From: Planctomycetales bacterium
GTDB lineage: Bacteria; 4484-113
Reading direction: 5' to 3'
Length of the DNA: 11,905 nucleotides
Assembly: GCA_037445915.1 (NCBI GenBank)
Contig: JBBIJQ010000057.1
Coordinates: 1-11,905, forward strand
Every line of letters starts with the position of its first letter. Within the stretch, counting starts at the first letter, position 1. The position numbers and the translations under genes were made by a program. Shown one piece after another: positions 1-11,905 of the stretch. The notes beneath the pieces are model-generated. The model was given only the letters and a program-made list of their open reading frames with translations. It made no database searches and was not told the origin of the DNA.

Positions 1-669
1 CAAATCCCCCATCGCGACGATGACCTCCTCAAAGCTCTCGCCCAGGCCAACCATCAGCCCGCTTTTCACCGGCATCCCCCGCCCAGGCTGCGTGGAGGCA
101 TATTCGCTTGCCTGCGCGAGAACGCCGATGGATCGCGCGAAGTCGGCATGCGGCCGCACATCCGCATACAGGCGCGGCACAGTCTCCACATTATGGTTAA
201 ATATCTCCGGCTTCGCCGCAAGCACGGTGTCCACCGCCGCTATGTTCCCGAGCAAGTCGGGCACAAGCACTTCCACGGTCGGTTTTGGGTCAAGCGCGTG
301 CAGCGACCTGATGACCTTTGCAAAGTGCTCTGCCCCGCCGTCGGGAAGGTCGTCGCGCGTCACACTGGTAACTACGACATGCTTGAGCTTCAGCGAATGT
401 GCGGCTTGCGCAACGCGCTTTGGCTCTTCGGGGTCGGGCGGCGCGGGAGTTCCGTGCGCCACAGCGCAGAAGCGGCAGCAGCGCGTGCAAAGCCCGCCGA
501 GAATCATGAACGTAGCAGTGCCTCGCCCATAGCATTCGCCAATGTTGGGGCAGTTGGCCTCTTCGCAGACCGTATGCAGCCCCGCAAGCAGCGTGGCCAT
601 TTCCGTGCGCTTTTGCGCGGACAGCGCCTTAACCCGTAGCCAGGACGGTTTCGCCTGTTTACCTGCCAT
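1..669 (-). CDS. lipA: Lipoyl synthase (radical SAM), 3' end outside the window
   Basis: Not in the ORF track; translated by hand from ATG at 669: [16 protein letters not shown]...[40 protein letters not shown]...[10 protein letters not shown]. It has the LipA CX4CX5C auxiliary cluster motif and the CX3CX2C radical SAM motif, and the frame continues to position 1. Confidence 0.96.
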
Positions 670-672
670 TGC

Positions 673-1269
673 TTACTCCATTTCGCGGCGGAACTTTAGC
701 GCCTGCGCAAGCGTATCCTCGTCGGCGTAGTCAATCTCTGCGCCAATGGGAAGCCCGCGCGCGGGCCGCGTAACCTTAACTCCCATTCCTGCAATCTCCT
801 CCGCCAGAACCGTCGCCGTCGCCTCGCCTTCAAAGCTGAAATCAAACGCTAGCAACGCCTCTCCTACGCGGGACTTGGCGATGCGCGCCTTCAGCTCGTC
901 AAGGCGTTCGCTGTTCAACATCTTTCCTTTAAGCGGGTCAATCAGCCCGCCAATCACAAAGTAATATCCTGGAAAGCCGCCTGTACGTTCAATTGGGTAA
1001 ATATCCAGCGGATCCGCCACGACGCACAGCATGGAGGCGTCGCGGGACTTGTCTGAGCAGATGCCGCACTCCCCGCCGCCCGAAAACCCGCCGCAGGTAG
1101 GGCATTTCTTCACCTTCGCCCCCACGCCGGAGATGCTCTCGGCAAGCTGCGAGGTGAACTGCGGGTCCTGCTCCAGGAGGTAAAGCGCAATTCTCTGGGC
1201 GCTTCGCGGGCCGATGCCTGGAAGCTGGGAGAGTAGCTGCACAAGCTGGCTTAGGGATTCAGGAAGCAT
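673..1269 (-). CDS. recR: Recombination mediator RecR
   Basis: 198 aa. HhH motif LPGIGPRSAQRIA, C4 zinc finger CPTC-X8-CGIC, Toprim region (YFVIGGLIDPLKG, EGEATA) and C-terminal ARGLPIGAEIDYADEDTL. Lies directly downstream of ybaB as usual. Confidence 0.97.
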   Translation of the reverse strand: MLPESLSQLVQLLSQLPGIGPRSAQRIALYLLEQDPQFTSQLAESISGVGAKVKKCPTCGGFSGGGECGICSDKSRDASMLCVVADPLDIYPIERTGGFPGYYFVIGGLIDPLKGKMLNSERLDELKARIAKSRVGEALLAFDFSFEGEATATVLAEEIAGMGVKVTRPARGLPIGAEIDYADEDTLAQALKFRREME

Positions 1270-1271
1270 TG

Positions 1272-1625
1272 TTACATGCCAAACGGCATCGCGCCGCCAA
1301 GCGCGCCCATGTCCATTCCGCCGGTGACTTCGCCCATCTTACGCTCGTTGAGTTCGCGCGCCAAAGTGAGAGCGGAGTTGAGGGCTGCGTAAACGAGGTC
1401 TTCCAGGTTCTCCACGCTTTCCTGCGCATCAGCAAGCGCCTCGGGCTTAATGCTGACGCGCACCAGCTCGCGGTGGCCGTTTAGCTCAATCTCCACCATT
1501 CCGCCTCCCGCCGAGCCTATGACGGTTTCGGTGGCGAGTTCATCCTGCGCGCGCTCCATGCGCTGTTGCATTTCGTTCTGGACCTTCTGCAGGTCTTTCA
1601 TCAGCTTTTTCATGTCCATTGCCAT
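1272..1625 (-). CDS. ybaB: YbaB/EbfC family nucleoid-associated protein
   Basis: 117 aa. N-terminal helix MKKLMKDLQKVQNEMQ, GSAGGGMVEIELNG, ENLEDLVYAALNSAL and a Gly/Met-rich tail. Conserved adjacency to recR with a 2-nt gap. Confidence 0.95.
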   Translation of the reverse strand: MAMDMKKLMKDLQKVQNEMQQRMERAQDELATETVIGSAGGGMVEIELNGHRELVRVSIKPEALADAQESVENLEDLVYAALNSALTLARELNERKMGEVTGGMDMGALGGAMPFGM

Positions 1626-1631
1626 TCGCCG

Positions 1632-1640
1632 ATTCTAGCA
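1632..1640 (-). promoter_or_regulatory. Extended -10 element (TGcTAGAAT) for a probably leaderless ybaB-recR-lipA transcript
   Basis: Minus strand reads TGC TAGAAT cggcga ATG, putting the -10 hexamer 6 nt before the start codon. No Shine-Dalgarno sequence. Confidence 0.65.
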
Positions 1641-1667
1641 TACGCGGCGCAGGGGACGGGCGAGCGC

Positions 1668-1673
1668 TACAAT
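1668..1673 (+). promoter_or_regulatory. -10 element (TACAAT) for a probably leaderless GGCT transcript
   Basis: TACAAT actcca ATG, 6 nt before ATG at 1680. No Shine-Dalgarno sequence. Confidence 0.6.
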
Positions 1674-1679
1674 ACTCCA

Positions 1680-2126
1680 ATGCCTTTCTACTTCGCATAC
1701 GGGTCAAACCTGAGCTTCGCGCAGATGGCGCGGCGCTGCCCCGGGGCAACGCCGCTTGGCAAAGCGCTGCTTACCGGCTGGCGCTACCTCATTTATGAAC
1801 GCGGCTATGCGAACATCGTGCCGGACGCGGCAGGCGAAGTATGGGGCGGCGTGTGGGAAGTGACGGAAGCCCATTTGCGCGAGCTGGATTACTTTGAAGG
1901 CGTGGCGCAGGGTCTGTATCATCGCGAGATTTGTGAAGTGGTGATGGACGGCAGCGGCGGCGAAGGCGCATCGCGCCTGACATGCGTTGTTTATGTTGAC
2001 GCTAACCCCAATGGCTCTGTCCCCGGCGTCCCGAAGCCTGAATACCAGTCCTGCATCCTCGCAGGCGCGCACGACTTCGCGCTGCCGCAAGCATACATCG
2101 CTTCCCTTGAGAAGCTAGCGAAGTAA
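1680..2126 (+). CDS. Gamma-glutamylcyclotransferase (GGCT/AIG2-like) family protein
   Basis: 148 aa from ATG 1680. Signature YFAYGSNL, ANIVP...VWGGVWEV, LDYFEG (catalytic Glu) and Y...ILAGAHDFALPQAYI. The ORF-track start at 1566 overlaps ybaB and is not used. Confidence 0.9.
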   Translation: MPFYFAYGSNLSFAQMARRCPGATPLGKALLTGWRYLIYERGYANIVPDAAGEVWGGVWEVTEAHLRELDYFEGVAQGLYHREICEVVMDGSGGEGASRLTCVVYVDANPNGSVPGVPKPEYQSCILAGAHDFALPQAYIASLEKLAK

Positions 2127-2130
2127 TCGG

Positions 2131-3534
2131 TTACTTCACCAGCGCGATGTCGGTGCGGAAGTGGGCGCCTGTGAAGTGGATGTTGCCCGCAGCTTCATAG
2201 GCAAGCCGCCTTGCCTCGGACAAGTCGCGCCCGCGCGCCGTCACCGAGAGCACTCGCCCGCCGGTCGCAATGAACACGTCGCGCTCACCGCCGGGATGCA
2301 GCGCGCGTGCAACCGCGCCAGCGACACCTTTACCCGGCTGCGATTCAGGCGCGAAGATGCGCGACTTGCTCACGCCCGCGTAGCACACGCTCACCCTCGG
2401 AAGCCTGCGGTAAATCGTGCCGTTGGGGTATGGCTCCTCGGCATCGTTTATCTGCACGATGCGCTCAAGCCCTTCAATCTCCGCGGGCGGCGAGCTGCCG
2501 TAAGGGTAATTAGCGCTGGCCAAAACTATGGTCACCGCCGCCTCGTTGCTGAAGTTGCATTTCGCGCGGTCAAGCTTGCCGCTTTCAACAGCGACGAGGA
2601 TGTCCACCAGGTCGTCCTGCAGCAGCGGCAACAATGCCTGTGTCTCCGGGTCGCCGAAGCGCACGTTGAACTCAAGCAGCATCATCCCGTGCGGCGTCGC
2701 CATCGTGCCGAAGTAAACGATGCCCCGGTAGTCAAGCTGCTCCTTGTTGCAGCCGTCCATGAACGGCGCGAGTATCTTCTTCTTGAACTCGTCAACCAGC
2801 GCAGGCGTGGCGTATGGCGAAGGGCACATGCAGCCCATCCCGCCGGTGTTAGGCCCCTTATCGCCGTCTTTCAGGCGCTTGTAATCGGAAGCAGGCGGCA
2901 TCATCACCGCCGTCTTGCCGTCAAAGAAGCAGAAGAACGATATCTCGGGGCCGGTAATGTGTTGCTCAACGAGGATTTTCTTTCCCGCGCCCTTGAACAC
3001 GTCCTCAACCATCATCTGCTCAAGCGTCTCGCGCGCAAATTCCAGCGTCTCGCAGATGACCACGCCCTTTCCTGCAGCCAGCCCGTCGGCCTTAATGACG
3101 GTGGGATACTTCACCTGCTCAAGGAAGCGGCTCGCCTCGCCGAAATCGGTGAAAGCCTCCGATGCTGCGGTGGGAATGCCGTAACGGCGCATGAAGTCCT
3201 TGGCGTAGCTTTTCTCCGCCTCAAGGCGCGCTGCCTCGCGGTCAGGGCCGACTATGCGCAAGCCCTGTTCCCGGAAAGCGTTTACGATTCCAGCAGCGAG
3301 CGGCGCTTCCGGGCCGACGAAAGTCAGGTTGATGCCTTCCTCCATCGCGAAGGCGAGTAAGCTTTCAATGTCATTCGCAGGGATGTCTTGCAGGCGCACG
3401 CGGCCGCGCCCGAAGGGATCATATATGCCGAAATTAGCGGGCGTTATGTATAAGCGGGTGACTTTGGGCGAAAGCAGCAGCGCCGAAGCGACGCTGCACT
3501 CCCTGCCACCATTGCCGACGACGAGTATTTTCAA
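2131..3534 (-). CDS. purD: Phosphoribosylamine--glycine ligase (GAR synthetase), divergent with C-domain insertions
   Basis: 467 aa. TTG start preceded by GGAGG. Motifs GNGGRE, VGPEAPL, IKADGLAAGKGV, DYKR..DGDKGPNTGGMG, EFNVRFGDPETQ, GGRVL and FRTDIA. Confidence 0.93.
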   Translation of the reverse strand: MKILVVGNGGRECSVASALLLSPKVTRLYITPANFGIYDPFGRGRVRLQDIPANDIESLLAFAMEEGINLTFVGPEAPLAAGIVNAFREQGLRIVGPDREAARLEAEKSYAKDFMRRYGIPTAASEAFTDFGEASRFLEQVKYPTVIKADGLAAGKGVVICETLEFARETLEQMMVEDVFKGAGKKILVEQHITGPEISFFCFFDGKTAVMMPPASDYKRLKDGDKGPNTGGMGCMCPSPYATPALVDEFKKKILAPFMDGCNKEQLDYRGIVYFGTMATPHGMMLLEFNVRFGDPETQALLPLLQDDLVDILVAVESGKLDRAKCNFSNEAAVTIVLASANYPYGSSPPAEIEGLERIVQINDAEEPYPNGTIYRRLPRVSVCYAGVSKSRIFAPESQPGKGVAGAVARALHPGGERDVFIATGGRVLSVTARGRDLSEARRLAYEAAGNIHFTGAHFRTDIALVK

Positions 3535-3551
3535 GAAGGGTCCTCCATAAA

Positions 3552-4994
3552 TTAGAAGCCGGCAACCCCGGCGTCTTCACGAGTATGGTCTTCAAACCTT
3601 GTGAATGGGTGGAGATATGTAAGGTATTCCATTTTGGTGGGGCCGTTGCGGTGCTTGGCGATGTTGACCTCAACCTTCGTCGCATAAGAGCCGCCGACAA
3701 CTTCGCCCTTTTGTTTTTCGTAATAATCCTCGCGGTAGAGCAGCATCACGACGTCAGCGTCCTGCTCAATGCTCCCGCTTTCGCGAAGGTCGGAGAGCAT
3801 CGGGCGGCGAGATTGGCGCTGTTCCGTCTGGCGTGAAAGCTGCGAGCAGGCGATTAATGGTATTTTTAGCTCGCGCGCAATCTGCTTCATTCCACGCGAG
3901 ATATCCGACACTTCCTGCACGCGGTTTAATTCCCCGCTATGCCGCATCCCGTCCATAAGCTGCAGGTAATCAAGCATCATGACATCAAGCTTGTCTTGCT
4001 GCTTAAGCCTGCGGGCGCGGTTGCGCAGTGAGCGGATGTTGAGCACTGACGTATCATCAAAGTAAATGGGGAGCGCAGCCAGCTCAGTGTATGCGGCGTG
4101 AAGCCTGCCAAGCTCATCCTCGCTGAAGTTTCCGTGGTCAACGCGCTCGGTGGGGATGCTGGAGGCCATGGAGAGCATTCGCATCGCGAGCTGTTCCTTC
4201 CCCATTTCCATAGAGAAGAAACCAACTTTTTTCCCCGCCAAGGCCATGCGGTGGGTAAAGTTAAGGAGCAGAGCGGTCTTGCCAACGCCGGGGCGGGCCG
4301 CAATGATTACGAGGTCCCCCGGCTTGAAACCACCCAGCGTCTTGTCAAGGTCAGTATACCCGGTTGTTATGCCGCGAGCTTTTACCAGCCTTTGCTCGAC
4401 GGTTCCGTCGGGTAGCACAACTTCCTCGTGCGAGAACGAGCCCATAAACGAGCGGATAGCATCGTCAATGCCTGAGAACTTGCCGGAAGAGATGCGCATG
4501 TCAAGCTGGAGTATCTGCCTTTCGGCGTGGTCAAGCAGCTCCTGCACATCGCGGCCCTGCTCGTAGGCGCGGCGGATAATTTCGTTGCACTCGGTGATGA
4601 GGTTGCGCAAAAGCGCCTTCTCGTGAAGTATTGTAGTGTGGGCTTCCACCGCCGAGGCGTTGGGGACGGAGGCGAGGATTTGGTAAATGTAGCTTTCGCC
4701 GCCGGCGGCGTCAAGGCGCTCCATCTCGCGCAAGTGGGCGATTAGCGCGATGGGGTCAGGCGGCACCCCACGGTTGTGGAGGTTCGCGGCGGCTTCCCAA
4801 ATTACTTGATGGGCTTCGTAGTAAAAGCTGTCGCGGCTCAGGGTTTCCAGCGTAATGCGGATAGCGTCAACAGGCTCTTGGAGTATTGCCGACAAGACGG
4901 CTTCCTCCAACTCCCGGGAATGGGGAGGTATCCTCCGCAGAAATTCAATGCTCTCAGGTTGTGCGCCCAAAGTATGCCCGTAAAACCAGTTCAA
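3552..4994 (-). CDS. dnaB: Replicative DNA helicase
   Basis: N-terminal PPHSRELEEAVL, Walker A AARPGVGKT, FSMEM, DYLQLM, SQLSR, SDLRESGSIEQDAD and KHRNGPT. No intein-sized insert. Start uncertain (TTG at 4994 or TTG at 4970). Confidence 0.96.
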   Translation of the reverse strand: MNWFYGHTLGAQPESIEFLRRIPPHSRELEEAVLSAILQEPVDAIRITLETLSRDSFYYEAHQVIWEAAANLHNRGVPPDPIALIAHLREMERLDAAGGESYIYQILASVPNASAVEAHTTILHEKALLRNLITECNEIIRRAYEQGRDVQELLDHAERQILQLDMRISSGKFSGIDDAIRSFMGSFSHEEVVLPDGTVEQRLVKARGITTGYTDLDKTLGGFKPGDLVIIAARPGVGKTALLLNFTHRMALAGKKVGFFSMEMGKEQLAMRMLSMASSIPTERVDHGNFSEDELGRLHAAYTELAALPIYFDDTSVLNIRSLRNRARRLKQQDKLDVMMLDYLQLMDGMRHSGELNRVQEVSDISRGMKQIARELKIPLIACSQLSRQTEQRQSRRPMLSDLRESGSIEQDADVVMLLYREDYYEKQKGEVVGGSYATKVEVNIAKHRNGPTKMEYLTYLHPFTRFEDHTREDAGVAGF

Positions 4995-5000
4995 TCTTGC

Positions 5001-5100
5001 CAGGGGGAAGTAACAGCAGTCCCGCTAAAGACAGTATATCGCGGATAGCCCAGAGGCTGTTAAATCTGAAGTAAGGGAACCAAAGGCTCCTTCCCCGTGC
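5001..5100 (-). ncRNA. Candidate structured 5' leader or small RNA upstream of dnaB (three-way junction)
   Basis: Complementary segments: 5090-5096 with 5004-5010 (GGGGAAG/CUUCCCC), 5056-5062 with 5011-5017 (UAACAGC/GCUGUUA), hairpin 5077-5089 (GAGCC-UUU-GGUUC) and inner stem 5041-5044 with 5022-5025. It begins at the predicted start site of the 5108-5136 promoter. No family recognised. Confidence 0.4.
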
Positions 5101-5107
5101 GACTCGC

Positions 5108-5136
5108 ATAGTAGCGAAGGCGTCGGAAACGCGCAA
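5108..5136 (-). promoter_or_regulatory. Sigma70-type promoter upstream of dnaB-purD
   Basis: Minus strand TTGCGC (5136-5131), 17-nt spacer, TACTAT (5113-5108). Confidence 0.6.
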
Positions 5137-5244
5137 GGGGTTTTGCGGATAAATCGCCTGCACAAGCTGTTCTACTTCTGCGGCCGTTTTTGCGCACGAT
5201 ATCAACGAAGCCAGTAATCATGCGGCTTTAACCGAAGTTTCCCG

Positions 5245-5421
5245 CTATATTGTGCTGCCCCAAAAGTAACCGATGGCGGCGAGGTCAGCCTCGTCAATCC
5301 GCCCGCTCAGATTCGCGTCCGCCCAGGGCAGGAAGCCTGCATCGGCGCTGCGAAGTCCCAGCAGCGGAACAAGCGCGTCGCGGTCAAGGCTGTTCACAAG
5401 GCGGTCGCCGTTCACGTCGCC
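5245..5421 (-). other. Dockerin-like domain of the S8 protease
   Basis: Two 12-residue calcium-loop repeats, DVNGDRLVNSLD and DANLSGRIDEAD, each followed by a hydrophobic helix, at the extreme C-terminus. Confidence 0.8.
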
Positions 5422-7986
5422 GCGCAGGTTGAATATGAAGATGGGTATCTGCACTACCGGGCTGCCGACACCATTGGCGTCAAACGCCTGTAGCTCCAGC
5501 ATCGCCGCCTGGTTGCCCAGCGTTGAAACGTCAAGGTTAAGCTCATATGGCGCGGCTATTTCGCCCGAAATGGGCGCGCCTCCCGTTGTCAGCTCGTAAC
5601 GAACCTTAACCGGGCTGTTGCTCGCAGCGACGGTTCCGGTGATTTGCCCCTTGGAATACACTGTGCCGTAATTAGCCGGCGTTGCGATGCCCGTGCTGGT
5701 GATGAACGGCACCGATTCCGCCCAGTTGCTCGCGACTACTACCTGGTCAATCCACCACCCAGCGGGCATGCTCGTGCTCTGGCCGCAGCCGCTGCCATCG
5801 GTTTGCAGCATGAAGCCCACGCTCACGGTCTGGCCTGCGTATGCCGCAAGCCGCACATGCGTGCTTACCCAGTCGGATTCAAAACCAGTCAAGCGCGCCG
5901 GATCGCCGCTGCGCAAATTAAGAAGCGTCCAATCGGATTGGAAGTTGTCGGTGCTGACCCAAACCGAGGCGATGTCTTTGCCGTTTTCAAGGTTGTAATG
6001 CGTCCTGAACGTCAGCGTCGGCGCGGGCGCGGGCGAGGCGGGGAGCTTCAGCCTCGGTAGCACCGCGAACGACTTCAGGCTGTTCGGGTAGTTGGGAGCC
6101 GTCGTGTTATAGACCCCGAATGAGTTGCCGCTATTGAAGCCGCCGGATAGCTTCTTGAAGCCGCCCGTGATGTCGCTTGCCCAGAAGGGGAGCGTCTCAT
6201 TAGCCCCCTCAAAATGGTAGACGACCGGATACGCGCCCGGCGTGTTGTCCACAATGTATGAAAGCAGGGTTTCGCTGCCAAGCTCCGGCAGCGTCCCTTC
6301 AGCGACCGCGCGCACAGATATGTTGCCAAAGCTTATGCCGCTTGTGTTGCAGCTAAAGCCCCAAGGCGCCCCATTCACTTTCGTTTGGAACACCCCGTCA
6401 AGATAGTAATCAATGGATAACGCGTTCTCAACTATATCCGGAATTATGTCCGCGCCCCCCGTCAGTATCATCGGCGATGGCTCAGGGAAGCGGACCTGCG
6501 GCCGCATTATTGGCGTCAGCGCAGCGAAGACATCCAGCCTGCGGATGGAAGTATTGCTCCATTGGGCAGACGGCAGAAGAGGGCCGTTTTGTATCAGCAA
6601 ATCGCGCACCTGGGTGTTTGTAAGTGTAGGCGCGTATGACTTGAGCAGCGCCGCAGCGCCCGCGACATGCGGACAGGCCATACTTGTTCCCTGCATGAGA
6701 ATATACTGGTTCGTGGTCTGATGCCCGCAAGATGCGATCATCCCATCGTCTGGAGGGTACTCGCCGCCCGGGGCTGCGATACTCACCCATGAGCCATAGT
6801 TGCTGTAGTCTGCGCGGCTATCTGTCGTCGTAGTGGCGCCGACGCTCAGAACGTTGCTGTAGGCGGCTGGGTATTGATATGTTGATACGTCGTCGTTACC
6901 AGCGGCCGCTACTAGAAAGCTCCCCTTGCCGTAGGCGTACGTGCAGGCATTTCGCAGGGATGAATCGTCAAACTCGCTGCCTAAACTCATATTCACCACT
7001 TGCGCGGACGCCTTGTCAACAGCCAGCACTAGCGCCGCAGCCACCATCGCAGCCGGGCATCCCGAGGCTGTCGGGCCGAATACCCGGATGGGGACTATTT
7101 TGCACTGGTAAGCCACGCCAACTACGCCCCTGCTGTTGTCCCCTACTGCTGCGATGGTTCCGGAAACGTGGGTACCATGTCCGTGTTCGTCGTCGGGCGC
7201 TTTCCAGTTTCCTCCTCCGTAATACCTGTCCCACAGGTCAAAGTACTCGGTAGGATACGCTGTGATGGGGTTGATGCAATTAGCAGCCAGGTCTTCATGG
7301 TTAGGGGAACCGCCGTCGTTGTCCGCTGAGTATTTAACTCCGCTGTCAATGACGGCTACTTTGACATTTGGATCGCCTCTCTCATGGTCCCACGCCGTTT
7401 CGCAGTTTATCTTTTCAATGTTCCACTGCCAAAGGTCGTTAGGGCGGTAGAGGGGGCGCACCCTCGCGGAGTACTCTACGTATTCCACCTGCTTTGCGTA
7501 GTCGGCCAGTATCCGCTCCATCACCGGGCGGGCATCGCTTCCGTCAAGCGTGCTGAACGTGGCAAAGTTCATCCCTTCAACGTAAACCTCTACTGTCAGG
7601 CGAATGCCGTAACGGCTGCGTATCTCCCGCGCCAGCGCGCCGAACTGGGGGTTGTTAACAAGCACCGACTGCGCGTCATAGCCCGAAAGGTCTTGCGGCG
7701 CGGCTGTGAACGCCTGCTTTGCGCCCGGCCTGAACCAAACGTTGAACCAATCGGCGTAGTAGTGCGTGCCTGCAACATAGCCGTCAGTGTTGAAGTTGTT
7801 GTCCGGCGAAGGCCGTGGGAGTTCGCCGCCGGACGCCGTGTTGCGGGAAGCGCCCCCGAGGGCTCCTGTTATGTCCTGCAGCTGCTTTGGCTTGCCGCAC
7901 GCCCCCGCGAGTAGCAGCGCTGCAAAAAGCATCATTGATGCCACACGCAATGCCCAAGCGCACCGAGTAATGTAACTTATGTTCAT
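5245..7986 (-). CDS. S8 subtilisin-like serine protease, putative lipoprotein, with C-terminal Ig-like/MAM-like/Ig-like/dockerin module
   Basis: 913 aa. Signal peptide ending LLLAGA-C30. Catalytic triad motifs VAVIDSG, DEHGHGTHVSG and QGTSMACPHVAG, plus oxyanion AAAGN. C-terminal GDVNGDRLVNSLD...DANLSGRIDEAD calcium loops. Confidence 0.93.
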   Translation of the reverse strand: MNISYITRCAWALRVASMMLFAALLLAGACGKPKQLQDITGALGGASRNTASGGELPRPSPDNNFNTDGYVAGTHYYADWFNVWFRPGAKQAFTAAPQDLSGYDAQSVLVNNPQFGALAREIRSRYGIRLTVEVYVEGMNFATFSTLDGSDARPVMERILADYAKQVEYVEYSARVRPLYRPNDLWQWNIEKINCETAWDHERGDPNVKVAVIDSGVKYSADNDGGSPNHEDLAANCINPITAYPTEYFDLWDRYYGGGNWKAPDDEHGHGTHVSGTIAAVGDNSRGVVGVAYQCKIVPIRVFGPTASGCPAAMVAAALVLAVDKASAQVVNMSLGSEFDDSSLRNACTYAYGKGSFLVAAAGNDDVSTYQYPAAYSNVLSVGATTTTDSRADYSNYGSWVSIAAPGGEYPPDDGMIASCGHQTTNQYILMQGTSMACPHVAGAAALLKSYAPTLTNTQVRDLLIQNGPLLPSAQWSNTSIRRLDVFAALTPIMRPQVRFPEPSPMILTGGADIIPDIVENALSIDYYLDGVFQTKVNGAPWGFSCNTSGISFGNISVRAVAEGTLPELGSETLLSYIVDNTPGAYPVVYHFEGANETLPFWASDITGGFKKLSGGFNSGNSFGVYNTTAPNYPNSLKSFAVLPRLKLPASPAPAPTLTFRTHYNLENGKDIASVWVSTDNFQSDWTLLNLRSGDPARLTGFESDWVSTHVRLAAYAGQTVSVGFMLQTDGSGCGQSTSMPAGWWIDQVVVASNWAESVPFITSTGIATPANYGTVYSKGQITGTVAASNSPVKVRYELTTGGAPISGEIAAPYELNLDVSTLGNQAAMLELQAFDANGVGSPVVQIPIFIFNLRGDVNGDRLVNSLDRDALVPLLGLRSADAGFLPWADANLSGRIDEADLAAIGYFWGSTI
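5323..6490. repeat. 1168-bp direct repeat, copy 1 (inside the S8 gene)
   Basis: Matches 8121-9288 at offset 2798. No mismatch found by eye, and the alternative-frame ORFs in the track are identical in both copies. First mismatches are at 5322/8120 and 6491/9289. Confidence 0.97.
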
Positions 7987-7996
7987 CTAACTTAAT

Positions 7997-8002
7997 AGTA
8001 TA
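7997..8002 (-). promoter_or_regulatory. Possible -10 element (TATACT) for the S8 gene
   Basis: Minus strand GGGG TATACT attaagttag ATG, 10 nt before the start codon, with no Shine-Dalgarno sequence. The upstream TTGACC is 20 nt away, too far for a canonical -35. Confidence 0.4.
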
Positions 8003-8042
8003 CCCCAATCTCTCTGCGTTGCGGTCAAGCTAGGCTGCGCTT

Positions 8043-8219
8043 TCAGAAGGTCCCTGTCCAGAAGTAGCCGACTGCAGCTAGGTCGCCAGTGTCCACTACT
8101 CCGTTGCTGTTTGAATCAAACCAGGGCAGGAAGCCTGCATCGGCGCTGCGAAGTCCCAGCAGCGGAACAAGCGCGTCGCGGTCAAGGCTGTTCACAAGGC
8201 GGTCGCCGTTCACGTCGCC
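8043..8219 (-). other. Dockerin-like domain of the M6 protease
   Basis: Calcium-loop repeats DVNGDRLVNSLD and DSNSNGVVDTGD with following helices at the C-terminus. Confidence 0.8.
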
Positions 8220-11036
8220 GCGCAGGTTGAATATGAAGATGGGTATCTGCACTACCGGGCTGCCGACACCATTGGCGTCAAACGCCTGTAGCTCCAGCAT
8301 CGCCGCCTGGTTGCCCAGCGTTGAAACGTCAAGGTTAAGCTCATATGGCGCGGCTATTTCGCCCGAAATGGGCGCGCCTCCCGTTGTCAGCTCGTAACGA
8401 ACCTTAACCGGGCTGTTGCTCGCAGCGACGGTTCCGGTGATTTGCCCCTTGGAATACACTGTGCCGTAATTAGCCGGCGTTGCGATGCCCGTGCTGGTGA
8501 TGAACGGCACCGATTCCGCCCAGTTGCTCGCGACTACTACCTGGTCAATCCACCACCCAGCGGGCATGCTCGTGCTCTGGCCGCAGCCGCTGCCATCGGT
8601 TTGCAGCATGAAGCCCACGCTCACGGTCTGGCCTGCGTATGCCGCAAGCCGCACATGCGTGCTTACCCAGTCGGATTCAAAACCAGTCAAGCGCGCCGGA
8701 TCGCCGCTGCGCAAATTAAGAAGCGTCCAATCGGATTGGAAGTTGTCGGTGCTGACCCAAACCGAGGCGATGTCTTTGCCGTTTTCAAGGTTGTAATGCG
8801 TCCTGAACGTCAGCGTCGGCGCGGGCGCGGGCGAGGCGGGGAGCTTCAGCCTCGGTAGCACCGCGAACGACTTCAGGCTGTTCGGGTAGTTGGGAGCCGT
8901 CGTGTTATAGACCCCGAATGAGTTGCCGCTATTGAAGCCGCCGGATAGCTTCTTGAAGCCGCCCGTGATGTCGCTTGCCCAGAAGGGGAGCGTCTCATTA
9001 GCCCCCTCAAAATGGTAGACGACCGGATACGCGCCCGGCGTGTTGTCCACAATGTATGAAAGCAGGGTTTCGCTGCCAAGCTCCGGCAGCGTCCCTTCAG
9101 CGACCGCGCGCACAGATATGTTGCCAAAGCTTATGCCGCTTGTGTTGCAGCTAAAGCCCCAAGGCGCCCCATTCACTTTCGTTTGGAACACCCCGTCAAG
9201 ATAGTAATCAATGGATAACGCGTTCTCAACTATATCCGGAATTATGTCCGCGCCCCCCGTCAGTATCATCGGCGATGGCTCAGGGAAGTGCAGGTATGCC
9301 GCGCCGATGCTCACGTCAATGATGGCGTCCGTCCCGTCGTGGCGGATGTTGCTGACGGTAACGTCGGTGGAATAGGAAAGCGTGTCCGCAAACTGCACGT
9401 AGGCGTTGGTGTCGGGCGTCGTATCAGGCGCGAAGCGGTTGGCATTTGCGTAAGCATCCGTCCACGGGTCGTATTTCCCGCCCATGTAGTCGGGGTCGTC
9501 AATTATCATGCCGTCTGCGCCTAAGTTGAGAGCATAAGAAGCGCTGCTCTCCTCAAGGTCTATAAACTTGCGCTCTTCGTGGTCGTTACAGCCAAATCCC
9601 CAGTCTTCCACGTCACCAAAAACGCCGTCTTTATACCAAACCCGCTCGTCAACATGCCAGATGAGCAGTCCGGGGTTCAGGACGCAAAGGGTTGGCGCGC
9701 TGGAGTAGATATCGCCGGAAGGCACGTAGGTCGGGTAATACAGGTATTGGTGGCTAAGGTTGTCGTTTTCAAGGATAAAATATTCCTGGCCTTCCTCGCC
9801 GTTGCGCCAGACACGGCGCACGTTGGCTGAACTGCTGTTGGTCGGCCCGAGCCGGAAGTCTTTCAAGTTGCCGGTAATCATGTCGGCGTTGGTCCAGCCA
9901 AGGCAATACTTAAGCGGGCCGCCAAGGTTGGCAGCCGGAAGGACATAAGACCCCGCGGCCATCATGCTCCAAAAGCCGTTGCCGCTGCTTTCATCGCCGT
10001 CGGGGCCGATATTGTTCCTGCCCGCGTAGTCTCCTCCATAATCATAGAGGTCGGGCAAGCCAAGTATATGGCCAACTTCGTGGTGCGGCGTGTATTCCCA
10101 CCAGGGGTAGGAAGCGTCGCTGTATCCCGCGAATGATGTGTAGTCCAGGAACGCGCCGCGAAGAATCTTCTTCCCGTCTTTTGTGAAGTCGGCTTCGTTA
10201 TACATGCCGTTCGGAAGGAAGCCGACGTGCTCGCGGCTAGTCCAGTTGTTTCTAAAGCGCTGGTAGACTATCGCGACCGAGTCGACGAAACCGTTGTTGT
10301 CGGCATCGTAATCGGCAAAGTTCACGTCGGGATTAGCGAGGTTGAGAAGCTGCCTTGCCTGATTGGTCGTCAATACGACAATTGAACCATTCCACAAAGG
10401 ACCGTTGTTAAGCTGGTACGCAGAATCCTCAGATCCGGTCGGGTAAACGTCGGCGTTCATGATCAGTTGGTTGTATGACTGCTGAGCGTAATACTCTTTT
10501 ACGCTGACGTTTTGCGCATCAGTTCCTGTCTCGCTGAACTTTTTTACAACCTGGCTTGTAGGCGCGATAGGTTGAGTAGACTCATCAGCCCATTTCACCT
10601 TAAGCACGAGTGTTCTCACCGTGCCGCTTTTGGGGCTGGCCATGCCATCAATGTTCATATCGTGCGGGCTGCCTGCTGAGGCTGCCTTGCCCTCGCCCGA
10701 AAACCCGCTGTAAAGCGCAGAGAGAAGCGCGGGGTCGCCTTCGCCGTAAACTCCAGGCTCCAGTTTGCCTTCAAGCTGGTATTCCTTGATGGTGTCGGCT
10801 GTGTATGCCCAGCGGTTGCGCGGCAGGCGGTAAGGTCCCGCATAAGGCGCATCTTTCCTGATGACGGCTGTTCCAGCAGGCGGCGCACTGGGAGAAATGG
10901 AGCTTGTTGACATAAAAACGTCCAGCGAGCCGTTTTCAAAGTGCAGGAGCTTCTTGGTGCCGCAGGATGCGAAGGCCGTAGTCAAAGTAAGTATTGCCAG
11001 GAGCAGGGCGCACCAGCGCAAGCATGATATGTGCAT
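8043..11036 (-). CDS. M6 family (immune inhibitor A-like) zinc metalloprotease, putative lipoprotein, with the same C-terminal module as the S8 protease
   Basis: HHEVGHILGLPDLYDY (HExxHxxGxxD), SVKEYYAQQSYNQL, DVNFADYDADNNGFVD, Met-turn WSMMAAGSY, EYFILEN and GLLIWHVDE. Start placed at ATG 11036 (997 aa) because GAGG lies 9 nt upstream, it gives a signal peptide ending TAFAS-C25, and it avoids overlap with the upstream gene. The track start is 11117. Confidence 0.92.
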   Translation of the reverse strand: MHISCLRWCALLLAILTLTTAFASCGTKKLLHFENGSLDVFMSTSSISPSAPPAGTAVIRKDAPYAGPYRLPRNRWAYTADTIKEYQLEGKLEPGVYGEGDPALLSALYSGFSGEGKAASAGSPHDMNIDGMASPKSGTVRTLVLKVKWADESTQPIAPTSQVVKKFSETGTDAQNVSVKEYYAQQSYNQLIMNADVYPTGSEDSAYQLNNGPLWNGSIVVLTTNQARQLLNLANPDVNFADYDADNNGFVDSVAIVYQRFRNNWTSREHVGFLPNGMYNEADFTKDGKKILRGAFLDYTSFAGYSDASYPWWEYTPHHEVGHILGLPDLYDYGGDYAGRNNIGPDGDESSGNGFWSMMAAGSYVLPAANLGGPLKYCLGWTNADMITGNLKDFRLGPTNSSSANVRRVWRNGEEGQEYFILENDNLSHQYLYYPTYVPSGDIYSSAPTLCVLNPGLLIWHVDERVWYKDGVFGDVEDWGFGCNDHEERKFIDLEESSASYALNLGADGMIIDDPDYMGGKYDPWTDAYANANRFAPDTTPDTNAYVQFADTLSYSTDVTVSNIRHDGTDAIIDVSIGAAYLHFPEPSPMILTGGADIIPDIVENALSIDYYLDGVFQTKVNGAPWGFSCNTSGISFGNISVRAVAEGTLPELGSETLLSYIVDNTPGAYPVVYHFEGANETLPFWASDITGGFKKLSGGFNSGNSFGVYNTTAPNYPNSLKSFAVLPRLKLPASPAPAPTLTFRTHYNLENGKDIASVWVSTDNFQSDWTLLNLRSGDPARLTGFESDWVSTHVRLAAYAGQTVSVGFMLQTDGSGCGQSTSMPAGWWIDQVVVASNWAESVPFITSTGIATPANYGTVYSKGQITGTVAASNSPVKVRYELTTGGAPISGEIAAPYELNLDVSTLGNQAAMLELQAFDANGVGSPVVQIPIFIFNLRGDVNGDRLVNSLDRDALVPLLGLRSADAGFLPWFDSNSNGVVDTGDLAAVGYFWTGTF
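8121..9288. repeat. 1168-bp direct repeat, copy 2 (inside the M6 gene)
   Basis: Matches 5323-6490 and encodes the same 389 aa (FPEPSPMIL...DAGFLPW). Confidence 0.97.
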
Positions 11037-11076
11037 GAGTCTCATCCTCTGGTTTGATACCGTTGTGCGCACTTGT

Positions 11077-11436
11077 TTATCCTGCCAGACCCCTAAGGAG
11101 GCTGATAGGAACGGCAAAGTGTATCAGGCTGCCACGCTGGTCTATGTTGGGTGACGCTTGTGCGACTCTTTCGCAAAACACTTTCACCTGCTCCGCGTCT
11201 TTGGTCAGGCAAATCAGCAAGCGGCTTTCGTGCTTGTCGGAAGTGAACAGCGACGACATCACCGACGCAATAGAAAGCTCTGCCGAATGCGTGTGGAACG
11301 TCGCCTGCGACAGTCCGTGGCTGTTCACAATTGTCACGCCGCTGGCGCCGGCTTCCATAAGCGCGGCGATGATCTCCTCGGAGTGTTCAACGTCGCGCAC
11401 AATAACACAAAATGCTATACCTTCAGATTCCGGCAT
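11077..11436 (-). CDS. P-II-like (GlnB-fold) small regulatory protein
   Basis: 119 aa, the size and pattern of the P-II superfamily: VIVRDVEHSEEIIAALMEAGASGVTIVNSHG, a T-loop-like segment, SRLLICLT and GSLIHFAVPI. Lacks the canonical GlnB/GlnK YRGAEY and GDGKIF motifs. Confidence 0.7.
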   Translation of the reverse strand: MPESEGIAFCVIVRDVEHSEEIIAALMEAGASGVTIVNSHGLSQATFHTHSAELSIASVMSSLFTSDKHESRLLICLTKDAEQVKVFCERVAQASPNIDQRGSLIHFAVPISLLRGLAG

Positions 11437-11497
11437 ATCCTTAGGATTTTACCCTATAACAAACCTTCCAGCTATCAGGTTCGCTCCTATTCTGTAA

Positions 11498-11506
11498 TGA
11501 TACAAT
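11498..11506 (+). promoter_or_regulatory. Extended -10 element (TGaTACAAT) for the MBL-fold gene
   Basis: TG-A-TACAAT about 42 nt upstream of the start codon, in an AT-rich divergent intergenic region. RBS AAGGAG at 11536-11541. Confidence 0.55.
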
Positions 11507-11548
11507 CTCACTCTTTGCTAATGAATGTTTTCCCAAAGGAGCCTCTTG

Positions 11549-11905
11549 TTGAAGATTGAAACTTTCGTATGCGGGCCGGTGCAGACCAACGTCTATCTCA
11601 TCTGGAATGAAGACACGCGAGAGGCTGCGCTTATTGACCCGGGGATGAATTCTGAAGAAGCCGGAGAAGCAGCCGCTAAATTTGGGCTTATCCCCAAATA
11701 TGTCTTCAATACGCACGCGCACTTTGACCACACCTGGCTAAACGCCTACTACAAGAGGCTGTGGCCTGCCGCTAGGCTTGTTTACAATAAGCTTGAGGAA
11801 CCGATGTTGGATGCTTCGCCACAGGCAGCCGCCCTTTTTGGCTTTCCCGCACCTGAAGCCTCGCCGCATGCCGATGTTTACTGCGTTGAAGGCGACGTAT
11901 TCATG
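11549..11905 (+). CDS. Metallo-beta-lactamase-fold hydrolase (glyoxalase II/YcbL-like), 3' end outside the window
   Basis: Not in the ORF track; translated by hand from TTG 11549 (7 nt after AAGGAG, alternative TTG at 11546): MKIETFVCGPVQTNVYLIWNEDTREAALIDPG...VFNTHAHFDH. Has the HxHxDH motif and stays open to the window end. Confidence 0.92.
   Translation, partial: MKIETFVCGPVQTNVYLIWNEDTREAALIDPGMNSEEAGEAAAKFGLIPKYVFNTHAHFDHTWLNAYYKRLWPAARLVYNKLEEPMLDASPQAAALFGFPAPEASPHADVYCVEGDVFM

Follow-up and report, generated by a model that had tools for sequence, protein, structure and literature searches.

The DNA analyzed here is a stretch of 11,905 nucleotides (nt) from a Planctomycetales bacterium (contig JBBIJQ010000057.1, positions 1 to 11,905; here, the window). 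Two of its genes encode proteases of different catalytic families, a subtilase of family S8 and a metalloprotease resembling family M6, and the two proteins end in the same multidomain module tipped by a dockerin. Both genes are on the minus strand of this chromosomal stretch (about 58% G+C), placed between dnaB and a metallo-beta-lactamase-fold gene, with the M6-like gene upstream and the S8 gene downstream. Database proteins are given below as P numbers and loci of other genomes as L numbers. The genes and the features of their catalytic parts are as follows.

5245–7986, minus strand: S8 subtilase gene, an open reading frame (ORF) of 913 amino acids (aa) (Peptidase_S8, 195.5 bits)
6586–7368, minus strand: S8 catalytic domain (Pfam match and motifs)
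7897–7986, minus strand: predicted lipoprotein-type signal peptide of the S8 protein, ...LAGA/C (Cys30) (pattern match)
7987–8042, minus strand: 56-nt spacer from the M6 stop codon to the S8 ORF start
8043–11036, minus strand: M6-like (immune inhibitor A-like) metalloprotease gene (translation, M6 models, and start of P0006)
10050–10082, minus strand: zinc-binding motif HEVGHILGLPD (HExxHxxGxxD) (translation)
10962–11036, minus strand: predicted lipoprotein-type signal peptide of the M6-like protein, lipobox ...AFAS/C (pattern match)

The preliminary description, made from the sequence alone, had proposed two adjacent, co-oriented genes with different catalytic heads, and domain searches agree with it. 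Peptidase_S8 (PF00082) matches residues 207 to 467 of the S8 protein with 195.5 bits (cut-off, 21.8), and the Asp, His, and Ser motifs of a subtilase (VIDSG, HGTHV, and GTSMA) begin at residues 212, 270, and 433. A near-identical database copy, P0005, begins at the position of Met18 of the 913-aa ORF. The second protein carries HEVGHILGLPD, which has the HExxHxxGxxD pattern of peptidase family M6. The M6 catalytic models score under their curated cut-offs (TIGR03296, 82.0 versus 110.8 bits; PF05547, 17.8 versus 22), and the protein is therefore called M6-like; its homologues carry the database name “M6 family metalloprotease-like protein.” Its ORF is open to a TTG at 11117, and the start is probably the ATG at 11036, where database copy P0006 also begins (MHIS...). 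The two heads are unrelated, and, judged by these motifs, both look catalytically intact.

Both proteases are predicted lipoproteins. A lipobox pattern of the PROSITE PS51257 type is present in 31 of 44 family members, both window proteins among them, and the other 13 are mostly truncated or have doubtful start codons. In two other genomes, lspA (Peptidase_A8, signal peptidase II) is found directly upstream of an M6-S8 pair (L002:7203-7796 and L003:4388-4987), as would suit two proteases predicted to be lipoproteins.

The shared module and its dockerin

Over their C-terminal 416 residues, the S8 and M6-like proteins are identical at 402 of 416 positions (BLASTP). In a base-by-base comparison, positions 5323–6490 equal positions 8121–9288, at an offset of 2798, with zero mismatches over 1168 nt (389 aa). 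The 389-aa identity had been pointed out in the preliminary description, and the shared module is found to extend to 416 aa. Beyond the identical tract, DNA identity falls to 27/100 nt on the head side, to 40/78 nt in the last 26 codons, and to 33/100 nt past the stop codons. The tract is not attributable to chance. The domains of the module, numbered by its 416 residues, and the borders of the tract are listed below.

S8 6235–6495 and M6 9033–9293, minus strand: domain 1, residues 1–87, Ig-like beta-sandwich (AlphaFold strands; Big_7 in homologues)
S8 5725–6234 and M6 8523–9032, minus strand: domain 2, residues 88–257, MAM-like/choice-of-anchor-J-like jelly-roll (weak profiles and Foldseek)
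S8 5431–5724 and M6 8229–8522, minus strand: domain 3, residues 258–355, second Ig-like domain (Ig2), in X-module position (Big_7, models, and Foldseek)
S8 5248–5430 and M6 8046–8228, minus strand: domain 4, residues 356–416, dockerin (Dockerin_1, loops, and helices)
5323–6490, minus strand: gene-conversion tract, S8 copy, 1168 nt (base-by-base comparison and repeat search)
8121–9288, minus strand: gene-conversion tract, M6 copy, 1168 nt (base-by-base comparison and repeat search)
5245–5322, minus strand: unconverted S8-specific tail, second dockerin loop and helix, ...ADANLSGRIDEADLAAIGYFWGSTI (40/78 nt shared with the M6 tail)
8043–8120, minus strand: unconverted M6-specific tail, ...FDSNSNGVVDTGDLAAVGYFWTGTF (residue comparison with distant-clade tails)

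Only the last 26 codons, which encode the second dockerin loop and helix, retain paralogue-specific sequence. When compared with the tails of a distant clade, the M6 tail of the window shares 18 to 22 of 27 residues with M6 tails and 14 to 15 of 27 with S8 tails. The window S8 tail shows a weak S8 affinity (14 to 16 of 27 residues to S8 tails versus 13 to 16 of 27 to M6 tails). Between the window S8 protein and P0005, 8 of 480 residues differ in the head (6496–7935) and none in the 416-residue module (5248–6495); the S8 module may be under tighter constraint than the head, or it may have been recently exchanged between strains.

The AlphaFold2 model of the 416-residue module, based on a 49-sequence alignment, has a mean predicted local distance difference test (pLDDT) score of 95.4 and a predicted template modeling (pTM) score of 0.87. 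Together with domain searches, it agrees with the order Ig, MAM-like, Ig, and dockerin that had been read from the sequence. In the two window proteins, domain 2 is matched by InhA-like_MAM (PF20773) with 20.8 and 23.2 bits (cut-off, 26.9) and by the NCBIfam model choice_anch_J with 25.0 and 25.9 bits (cut-off, 30), and domain 3 is matched by Big_7 with 21.9 and 21.3 bits. Foldseek matches of the whole module include RPTP-mu MAM-Ig (2c9a), InhA2 (4yu5 and 4yu6), pro-meprin (7uab), a reelin repeat (7lyu), and the Kgp K1 adhesin (4itc). These are generic multidomain sandwich matches, whose template modeling (TM) scores on the query are low (0.15 to 0.30) because the matches run domain by domain. 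No cohesin was found among the best 50 ranks of this search.

The preliminary description had let its reading depend on whether the C terminus models as a dockerin, and it does: two helices (module residues 369–378 and 402–410 in the AlphaFold model) stand behind two 12-residue Asp/Asn loops, DVNGDRLVNSLD and DANLSGRIDEAD (DSNSNGVVDTGD in the M6 copy), as in a dockerin segment. Loop residues D360, N362, D364, D371, D393, and D404 are invariant or nearly so in alignments of 12 and 49 sequences, and D360, D371, D393, and D404 are invariant in the 49. Dockerin_1 scores 22.2 bits in the S8 protein (cut-off, 22.9) and 23.4 to 36.3 bits, above the cut-off, in homologues of the same module (e.g., 30.3, 27.0, 29.2, 36.3, and 33.7). 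A sequence search of solved structures returned dockerins only (2y3n, 1daq, and 2mte), with weak E values of 0.015 to 0.19. When the last 160 residues (Ig2 and dockerin) were modeled separately (pLDDT, 96.5; pTM, 0.88), ranks 1, 2, 3, 5, and 7 of the top 10 Foldseek matches were the type II X-dockerin entries 3kcp, 5m0y, 2b59, and 4fl4 (two chains), at E values of 1.5e-4 to 2.5e-3 over about 130 columns; FN3/PKD-like domains were also matched. By its sequence and predicted fold, the C terminus of the module is a two-loop dockerin with putative calcium-binding loops. Between the window M6 protein and a distant M6 protein, the dockerin is the best-kept domain of the module (72% identity, and 80% in the second repeat, versus 41 to 51% for the other three domains), which argues that it is under selection for something specific.

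Gene conversion and recombination between the module copies

A word-indexed search yielded 14 proteins with the whole module, 10 with M6-like and 4 with S8 heads, including the two of the window. In an exhaustive HMMER search of 1.84 billion representatives, 299 proteins were found at E values of ≤1e-3, 92 at ≤1e-10, and 26 at ≤1e-30. A domain scan of distant module carriers covered 37 of the best 150 representatives. Thirty of the 37 have MAM-like, Ig-like, and dockerin domains, and they comprise 24 S8 proteins, 4 M6-like proteins, and 2 headless fragments, with no other head among them. The remaining seven (five S8, one M6, and one TIG-domain protein) share Ig2 and dockerin only. The distant subtilases are collinear with the window S8 protein over their full length (29 to 36% identity in the head and 24 to 33% in the module). 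As far as these matches indicate, predicted lipoprotein subtilases that end in Ig-MAM-Ig-dockerin make up a sizeable family without a name, and the M6 form is rarer. Four representatives from outside the window, P0081, P0102, P0111, and P0118 (about 550 to 565 aa), have only Ig2 and dockerin in common with the module. No protease domain was seen in these four proteins, which show TIG (P0081) or weak LIC10067-lipoprotein-like matches; they might be noncatalytic members of the same docking system.

A scan of genome contigs located the module at 23 loci. An M6-then-S8 tandem follows lspA in L002 and L003, and P0016 (S8) and P0017 (M6) each have as their listed source a contig of 15646 nt, which is taken to be the same contig from its size only. 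The paired module copies of other genomes show 53 to 54% protein identity and about 65% DNA identity (L002 and L003), whereas orthologous modules are 78 to 84% identical across genomes. The longest exact word common to the two L002 modules is 26 nt, and no recent conversion was seen in the L002 and L003 pairs at this level of DNA identity. When 30 modules were placed on a maximum-likelihood tree, the window copies paired as sisters (100% support), in a clade otherwise composed entirely of M6 modules. These comparisons mean that the common architecture is old and that the 1168-nt identity is a recent gene-conversion tract particular to the window lineage, in which the module copies evolve in concert. 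The two-gene cassette, M6-like and then S8, is conserved across diverged genomes. The earlier view of the module as a standard adaptor holds in that a protease-specific module recurs on the M6-S8 tandem (L002 and L003), but the exact identity is due to lineage-particular gene conversion and not to standardization.

With regard to the direction of conversion, the window module clade forms a branch apart from both far M6 and far S8 modules and is equidistant from them at 47 to 51%. The S8 head is 64 to 67% identical to far S8 heads, and its module is 47 to 49% identical; for the M6 protein, the values are 56 to 58% (head) and 49 to 52% (module). This hints that the S8 copy was overwritten by the M6 copy, although we do not rely on it.

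The same repeat also marks the loss of a catalytic head in a sister genome. The other genes of the window, some of which recur in that genome, are as follows.

1–669, minus strand: radical-SAM gene (housekeeping)
673–1269, minus strand: recR (housekeeping)
1272–1625, minus strand: ybaB (housekeeping)
1566–2126, plus strand: GGACT-like gene
2131–3534, minus strand: purD (housekeeping)
3552–4994, minus strand: dnaB (housekeeping)
11525–11905, plus strand: metallo-beta-lactamase-fold gene

L001 represents the nearest genome in the collection, with a module 78% identical to that of the window. Two collinear blocks align it with the window, and their overlap coincides exactly with the repeat: 8121–11903 corresponds to L001 3239–7025 (78.4%), and 26–6490 corresponds to L001 5855–12288 (83.4%). 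The order in L001 is a beta-lactamase-fold gene, the M6 head, one module, an S8-type tail, dnaB, and purD, and there is no S8 gene. Compared with the window, L001 is without 2798 bp, comprising the M6-type tail, the spacer, the S8 head, and one copy of the repeat. This arrangement is the product expected of homologous recombination between two module copies. The M6 proteins P0007 to P0010 carry the same S8-type tail as L001, and these L001-type tails share 12 to 15 of 27 residues with distant M6 tails. The likeness of this S8-type tail to S8 tails is weak (14 to 17 versus 12 to 16 of 27 residues). A deletion in the L001 lineage is favored because the M6-type tail is common to the window and the distant clade, and an insertion into the window lineage is less likely. 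The M6 gene also lies directly before dnaB and purD in the more distant L004 and L005, which keeps the insertion alternative alive. The dnaB and purD genes of L001 (7618–9371) are broken up in such a way that DnaB_C and GARS_N share fused ORFs; these breaks are probably frameshift errors in the assembly of a metagenome-assembled genome (MAG) and not real pseudogenes.

The protease locus illustrates cleanly, in a natural setting, how gene conversion can act on a single segment of two genes that are otherwise unrelated, and in the sister genome the same repeat mediates the loss of a whole catalytic head. Conversion and recombination events of this kind can mislead orthology calls and metagenome assembly.

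Pattern scans detected no minus-strand terminator-like site in 4800–11905; the sole terminator-like site is on the plus strand within the M6 gene, and the promoter-like minus-strand sites all fall in coding sequence. Rfam and tRNA scans of the window gave no matches. Immediately upstream of the M6 gene, and overlapping the part of its ORF that precedes the likely start codon, a small minus-strand ORF (11077–11436) weakly resembles P-II nitrogen regulators (E value of 1e-4, below the Pfam cut-off). Its counterpart in L001 (3701–4066) keeps this position and has a P-II-like match with an E value of 5e-5. In the PurD proteins of L004 (12878–14287) and L005 (13092–14498), the C-terminal domain GARS_C, a profile of 92 positions, spans about 135 residues, and in window PurD (2131–3534) the GARS_C match starts only from residue 412, which suggests a lineage-specific insertion of about 45 to 50 residues. 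By their source labels, L002 to L005 and L007 are Planctomycetales MAGs, and L004 bears the name “Planctomycetales bacterium 4484_113.” In the available text of PMC11382960, the GTDB placeholder phylum 4484-113 is also named “Candidatus Niteriota,” and L004 would be, from its name alone, the apparent namesake of this phylum.

Possible roles of the dockerin-tipped module

The reading that we prefer, with about as much doubt as confidence, is that the module co-targets two complementary endopeptidases, via a common stalk and a dockerin, to a putative receptor. Both proteases would be exported as lipoproteins, each with the Ig, MAM-like, Ig, and dockerin tail, and the module would hold two endopeptidases of different chemistry at one place, either at the cell envelope or on a common ligand. 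Receptor binding would fall to the dockerin, supported by the adjacent Ig-like domain as in X-module-dockerin pairs, and the MAM-like beta-sandwich may help in substrate binding. Because both proteins are predicted lipoproteins, the dockerin would not be needed merely to hold the enzymes on the cell. Proteases of families S8 and M6 usually shed an N-terminal pro-region, and here the lipid anchor precedes the pro-regions, so that the dockerin could be what keeps the mature enzymes in place after activation.

Several observations weigh against co-targeting. Every Pfam or NCBIfam match of the module in the window proteins is under its curated cut-off; in the S8 protein, Dockerin_1 narrowly misses the Pfam cut-off, and in the M6 protein it was not reported at an E value of ≤1. 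The X-dockerin matches have TM scores of about 0.33 and root mean square deviations of 13 to 14 Å; therefore, the domains agree with X-dockerin structures in composition but not in mutual orientation. What difference survives between the tails may be a mere edge effect of gene conversion and not a product of selection. In L001, L004, and L005, the M6 gene has no adjacent S8 gene, and pairing is therefore dispensable. The protease pair is surrounded by housekeeping genes (dnaB, purD, recR, and ybaB) and not by a degradative locus. Finally, a Pfam search for Cohesin found none in 75 ORFs of eight loci, namely, the 13 of the window and 25 plus 37 of L001 to L007, with neighboring ORFs covered; 22 of the 75 matched no Pfam family. 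The statement in the preliminary description that the window has no cohesin gene is thereby borne out for the 13 ORFs scanned.

The strongest alternative is that the dockerins plug into cohesins of a scaffold encoded elsewhere, in a cellulosome-like multiprotease complex in which the second helix could give each enzyme its own socket. We consider it possible but doubtful. The dockerin is real and well conserved, and the M6-type or S8-type character of the last 26 aa persists from genome to genome. Besides the two dockerin enzymes of the window, further dockerin proteins occur near relatives: a protein of 368 aa whose gene immediately precedes the S8 gene (L006:3196-4302) and a 716-aa protein with dockerin, PKD, and beta-propeller domains (L005:18967-21117). 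Genome-based precedents are the planctosome (PMC6461901) and a scaffold in Cloacimonadota (PMC8542988), which are, as far as the available text of these papers goes, themselves only models. The lack of Cohesin among the 75 neighboring ORFs of the eight loci speaks against a scaffold, as does the predicted lipid anchor that both enzymes already carry. In L004, L005, and L006, secreted-looking proteins near the module genes contain no cohesin recognized by Pfam. The M6 genes of L004 and L005 have divergent neighbors encoding PKD-repeat proteins of about 1100 aa (L004:4363-7740 and L005:4866-8171).

Without a scaffold, the module might serve as an adhesin for substrate or envelope, in which the sandwich and Ig-like domains bind particulate protein or glycan and the dockerin-like end is a calcium-stabilized cap or binds a noncohesin ligand, e.g., a cell envelope polymer. 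By its Foldseek matches, the central domain belongs with the sandwiches of MAM, cleaved-adhesin, and carbohydrate-binding proteins (4itc, 2c26, 3k4z, and 7jrm), a weak NCBIfam choice-of-anchor J match points the same way, a MAM-like domain is native to M6 (InhA) enzymes, and the absence of a cohesin from the 75 nearby ORFs scanned is in keeping with this role. However, it is the dockerin and not the sandwich that is most conserved between distant M6 orthologues, the loop residues for calcium in cohesin-binding dockerins are all retained, and no ligand was predicted by any analysis. We regard an adhesin without a scaffold as unlikely.

A more elaborate form of co-targeting is less probable still. 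In it, the module would be a dedicated display adaptor of a so far undescribed surface proteolytic machine in a little-known lineage (MAGs labeled Planctomycetales), with serine and metalloendopeptidases side by side on one receptor; the converted stalk would be the common part and the second dockerin helix the enzyme's own address, and stalk conversion and head loss would tune the enzyme set.

MAM domains mediate direct association in meprins and RPTP-mu. Since the central domain is MAM-like and the modules are identical in the window genome, the two enzymes could bind each other via the shared module, with homogenization keeping a self-complementary interface. This is very improbable, given that paired modules elsewhere are just 53 to 54% identical and that L001, L004, and L005 have M6 alone. 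Assembly error is an unlikely source of the duplicated module, and an artifact in the form of a chimeric or collapsed repeat deserves almost no credence: the 1168 nt of perfect identity do have knife-sharp borders and the window does look like a whole metagenome contig, the longest contig of its cluster measuring 11905 nt, but both junctions are in frame, P0005, which is listed from another contig (21413 nt; independent as judged from size only), has the same S8 head, module, and tail, L002 and L003 hold both architectures side by side, and L001 carries the recombination product expected of a true repeat.

Comparison with known systems

Dockerin-linked subtilases already appeared in a domain architecture survey of 2008 (PMC2605481, in its available text). 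For freshwater Planctomycetes, genomes led to the proposal of the planctosome, a peptide-degrading cohesin-dockerin complex that includes M12B and M14 peptidases (PMC6461901), and a genome-based scaffold model with dockerin-bearing S8 and C25 peptidases exists for “Candidatus Stygibacter” of the Cloacimonadota (PMC8542988). According to the available parts of these two papers, both models resemble the window system in that secreted peptidases of more than one catalytic type have a dockerin at their C terminus, that surface protein degradation is inferred, and that the hosts are uncultured aquatic or sediment bacteria, including MAGs labeled Planctomycetales. They differ from it in three respects. 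(i) Both rest on a cohesin scaffold or adaptor in the same genomes, whereas none was found here among the 75 nearby ORFs. (ii) The peptidase pairs are M12B and M14 in the planctosome and S8 and C25 in “Ca. Stygibacter,” versus M6 and S8 here. (iii) The available text describes neither a shared Ig-MAM-Ig stalk nor sequence homogenization between enzymes.

The type II X-module-dockerin structures of Clostridium thermocellum (2b59, 3kcp, 5m0y, and 4fl4) likewise have an Ig-like domain followed by a two-helix dockerin. They belong to a scaffoldin, whereas the window domains are on enzymes; sequence identity is 14 to 17%, and the relative position of the domains differs. Immune inhibitor A (M6; 4yu5 and 4yu6; PF20773) resembles the M6-like protein in that HExxHxxGxxD is followed by a MAM-like sandwich. 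In the window, two Ig-like domains and a dockerin are added to this arrangement, and the same module is also on a subtilase.

The gingipains are proteases of different specificity with identical noncatalytic repeats, and both belong to one catalytic family, C25. The Kgp K1 adhesin (4itc) matches the central sandwich of the module (TM score of 0.61 on the target). The rgpA, kgp, and hagA genes of Porphyromonas gingivalis share identical repeats that encode C-terminal adhesin domains, their products form large outer membrane complexes, and the organism is stated to be capable of gene conversion by homologous recombination (PMC5266723). As far as the available text of that paper goes, the gingipains are the closest precedent for recombining shared modules. 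They differ from the window proteins in their type IX export with a C-terminal domain of its own and in having no dockerin. The window proteins have S8 and M6-like heads only, in place of C25, and end in a dockerin in place of a type IX sorting domain, so that the gingipains serve as an analogy only.

In the full-text literature searched, Supplementary Figures 13 and 14 of PMC6461901 (cohesin/dockerin proteins) aside, no description of an S8/M6 pair with a shared dockerin module was found. Dockerin peptidases and adhesin modules shared between proteases are already known, and no new field is opened by our findings; what differs here is that the heads are of different catalytic classes and that the shared piece ends in a dockerin. 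To our knowledge, most noncellulosomal dockerins have no known function. The same dockerin-tipped stalk on two unrelated protease heads across diverged genomes provides a compact and testable case for the role of dockerins in uncultured protein degraders.

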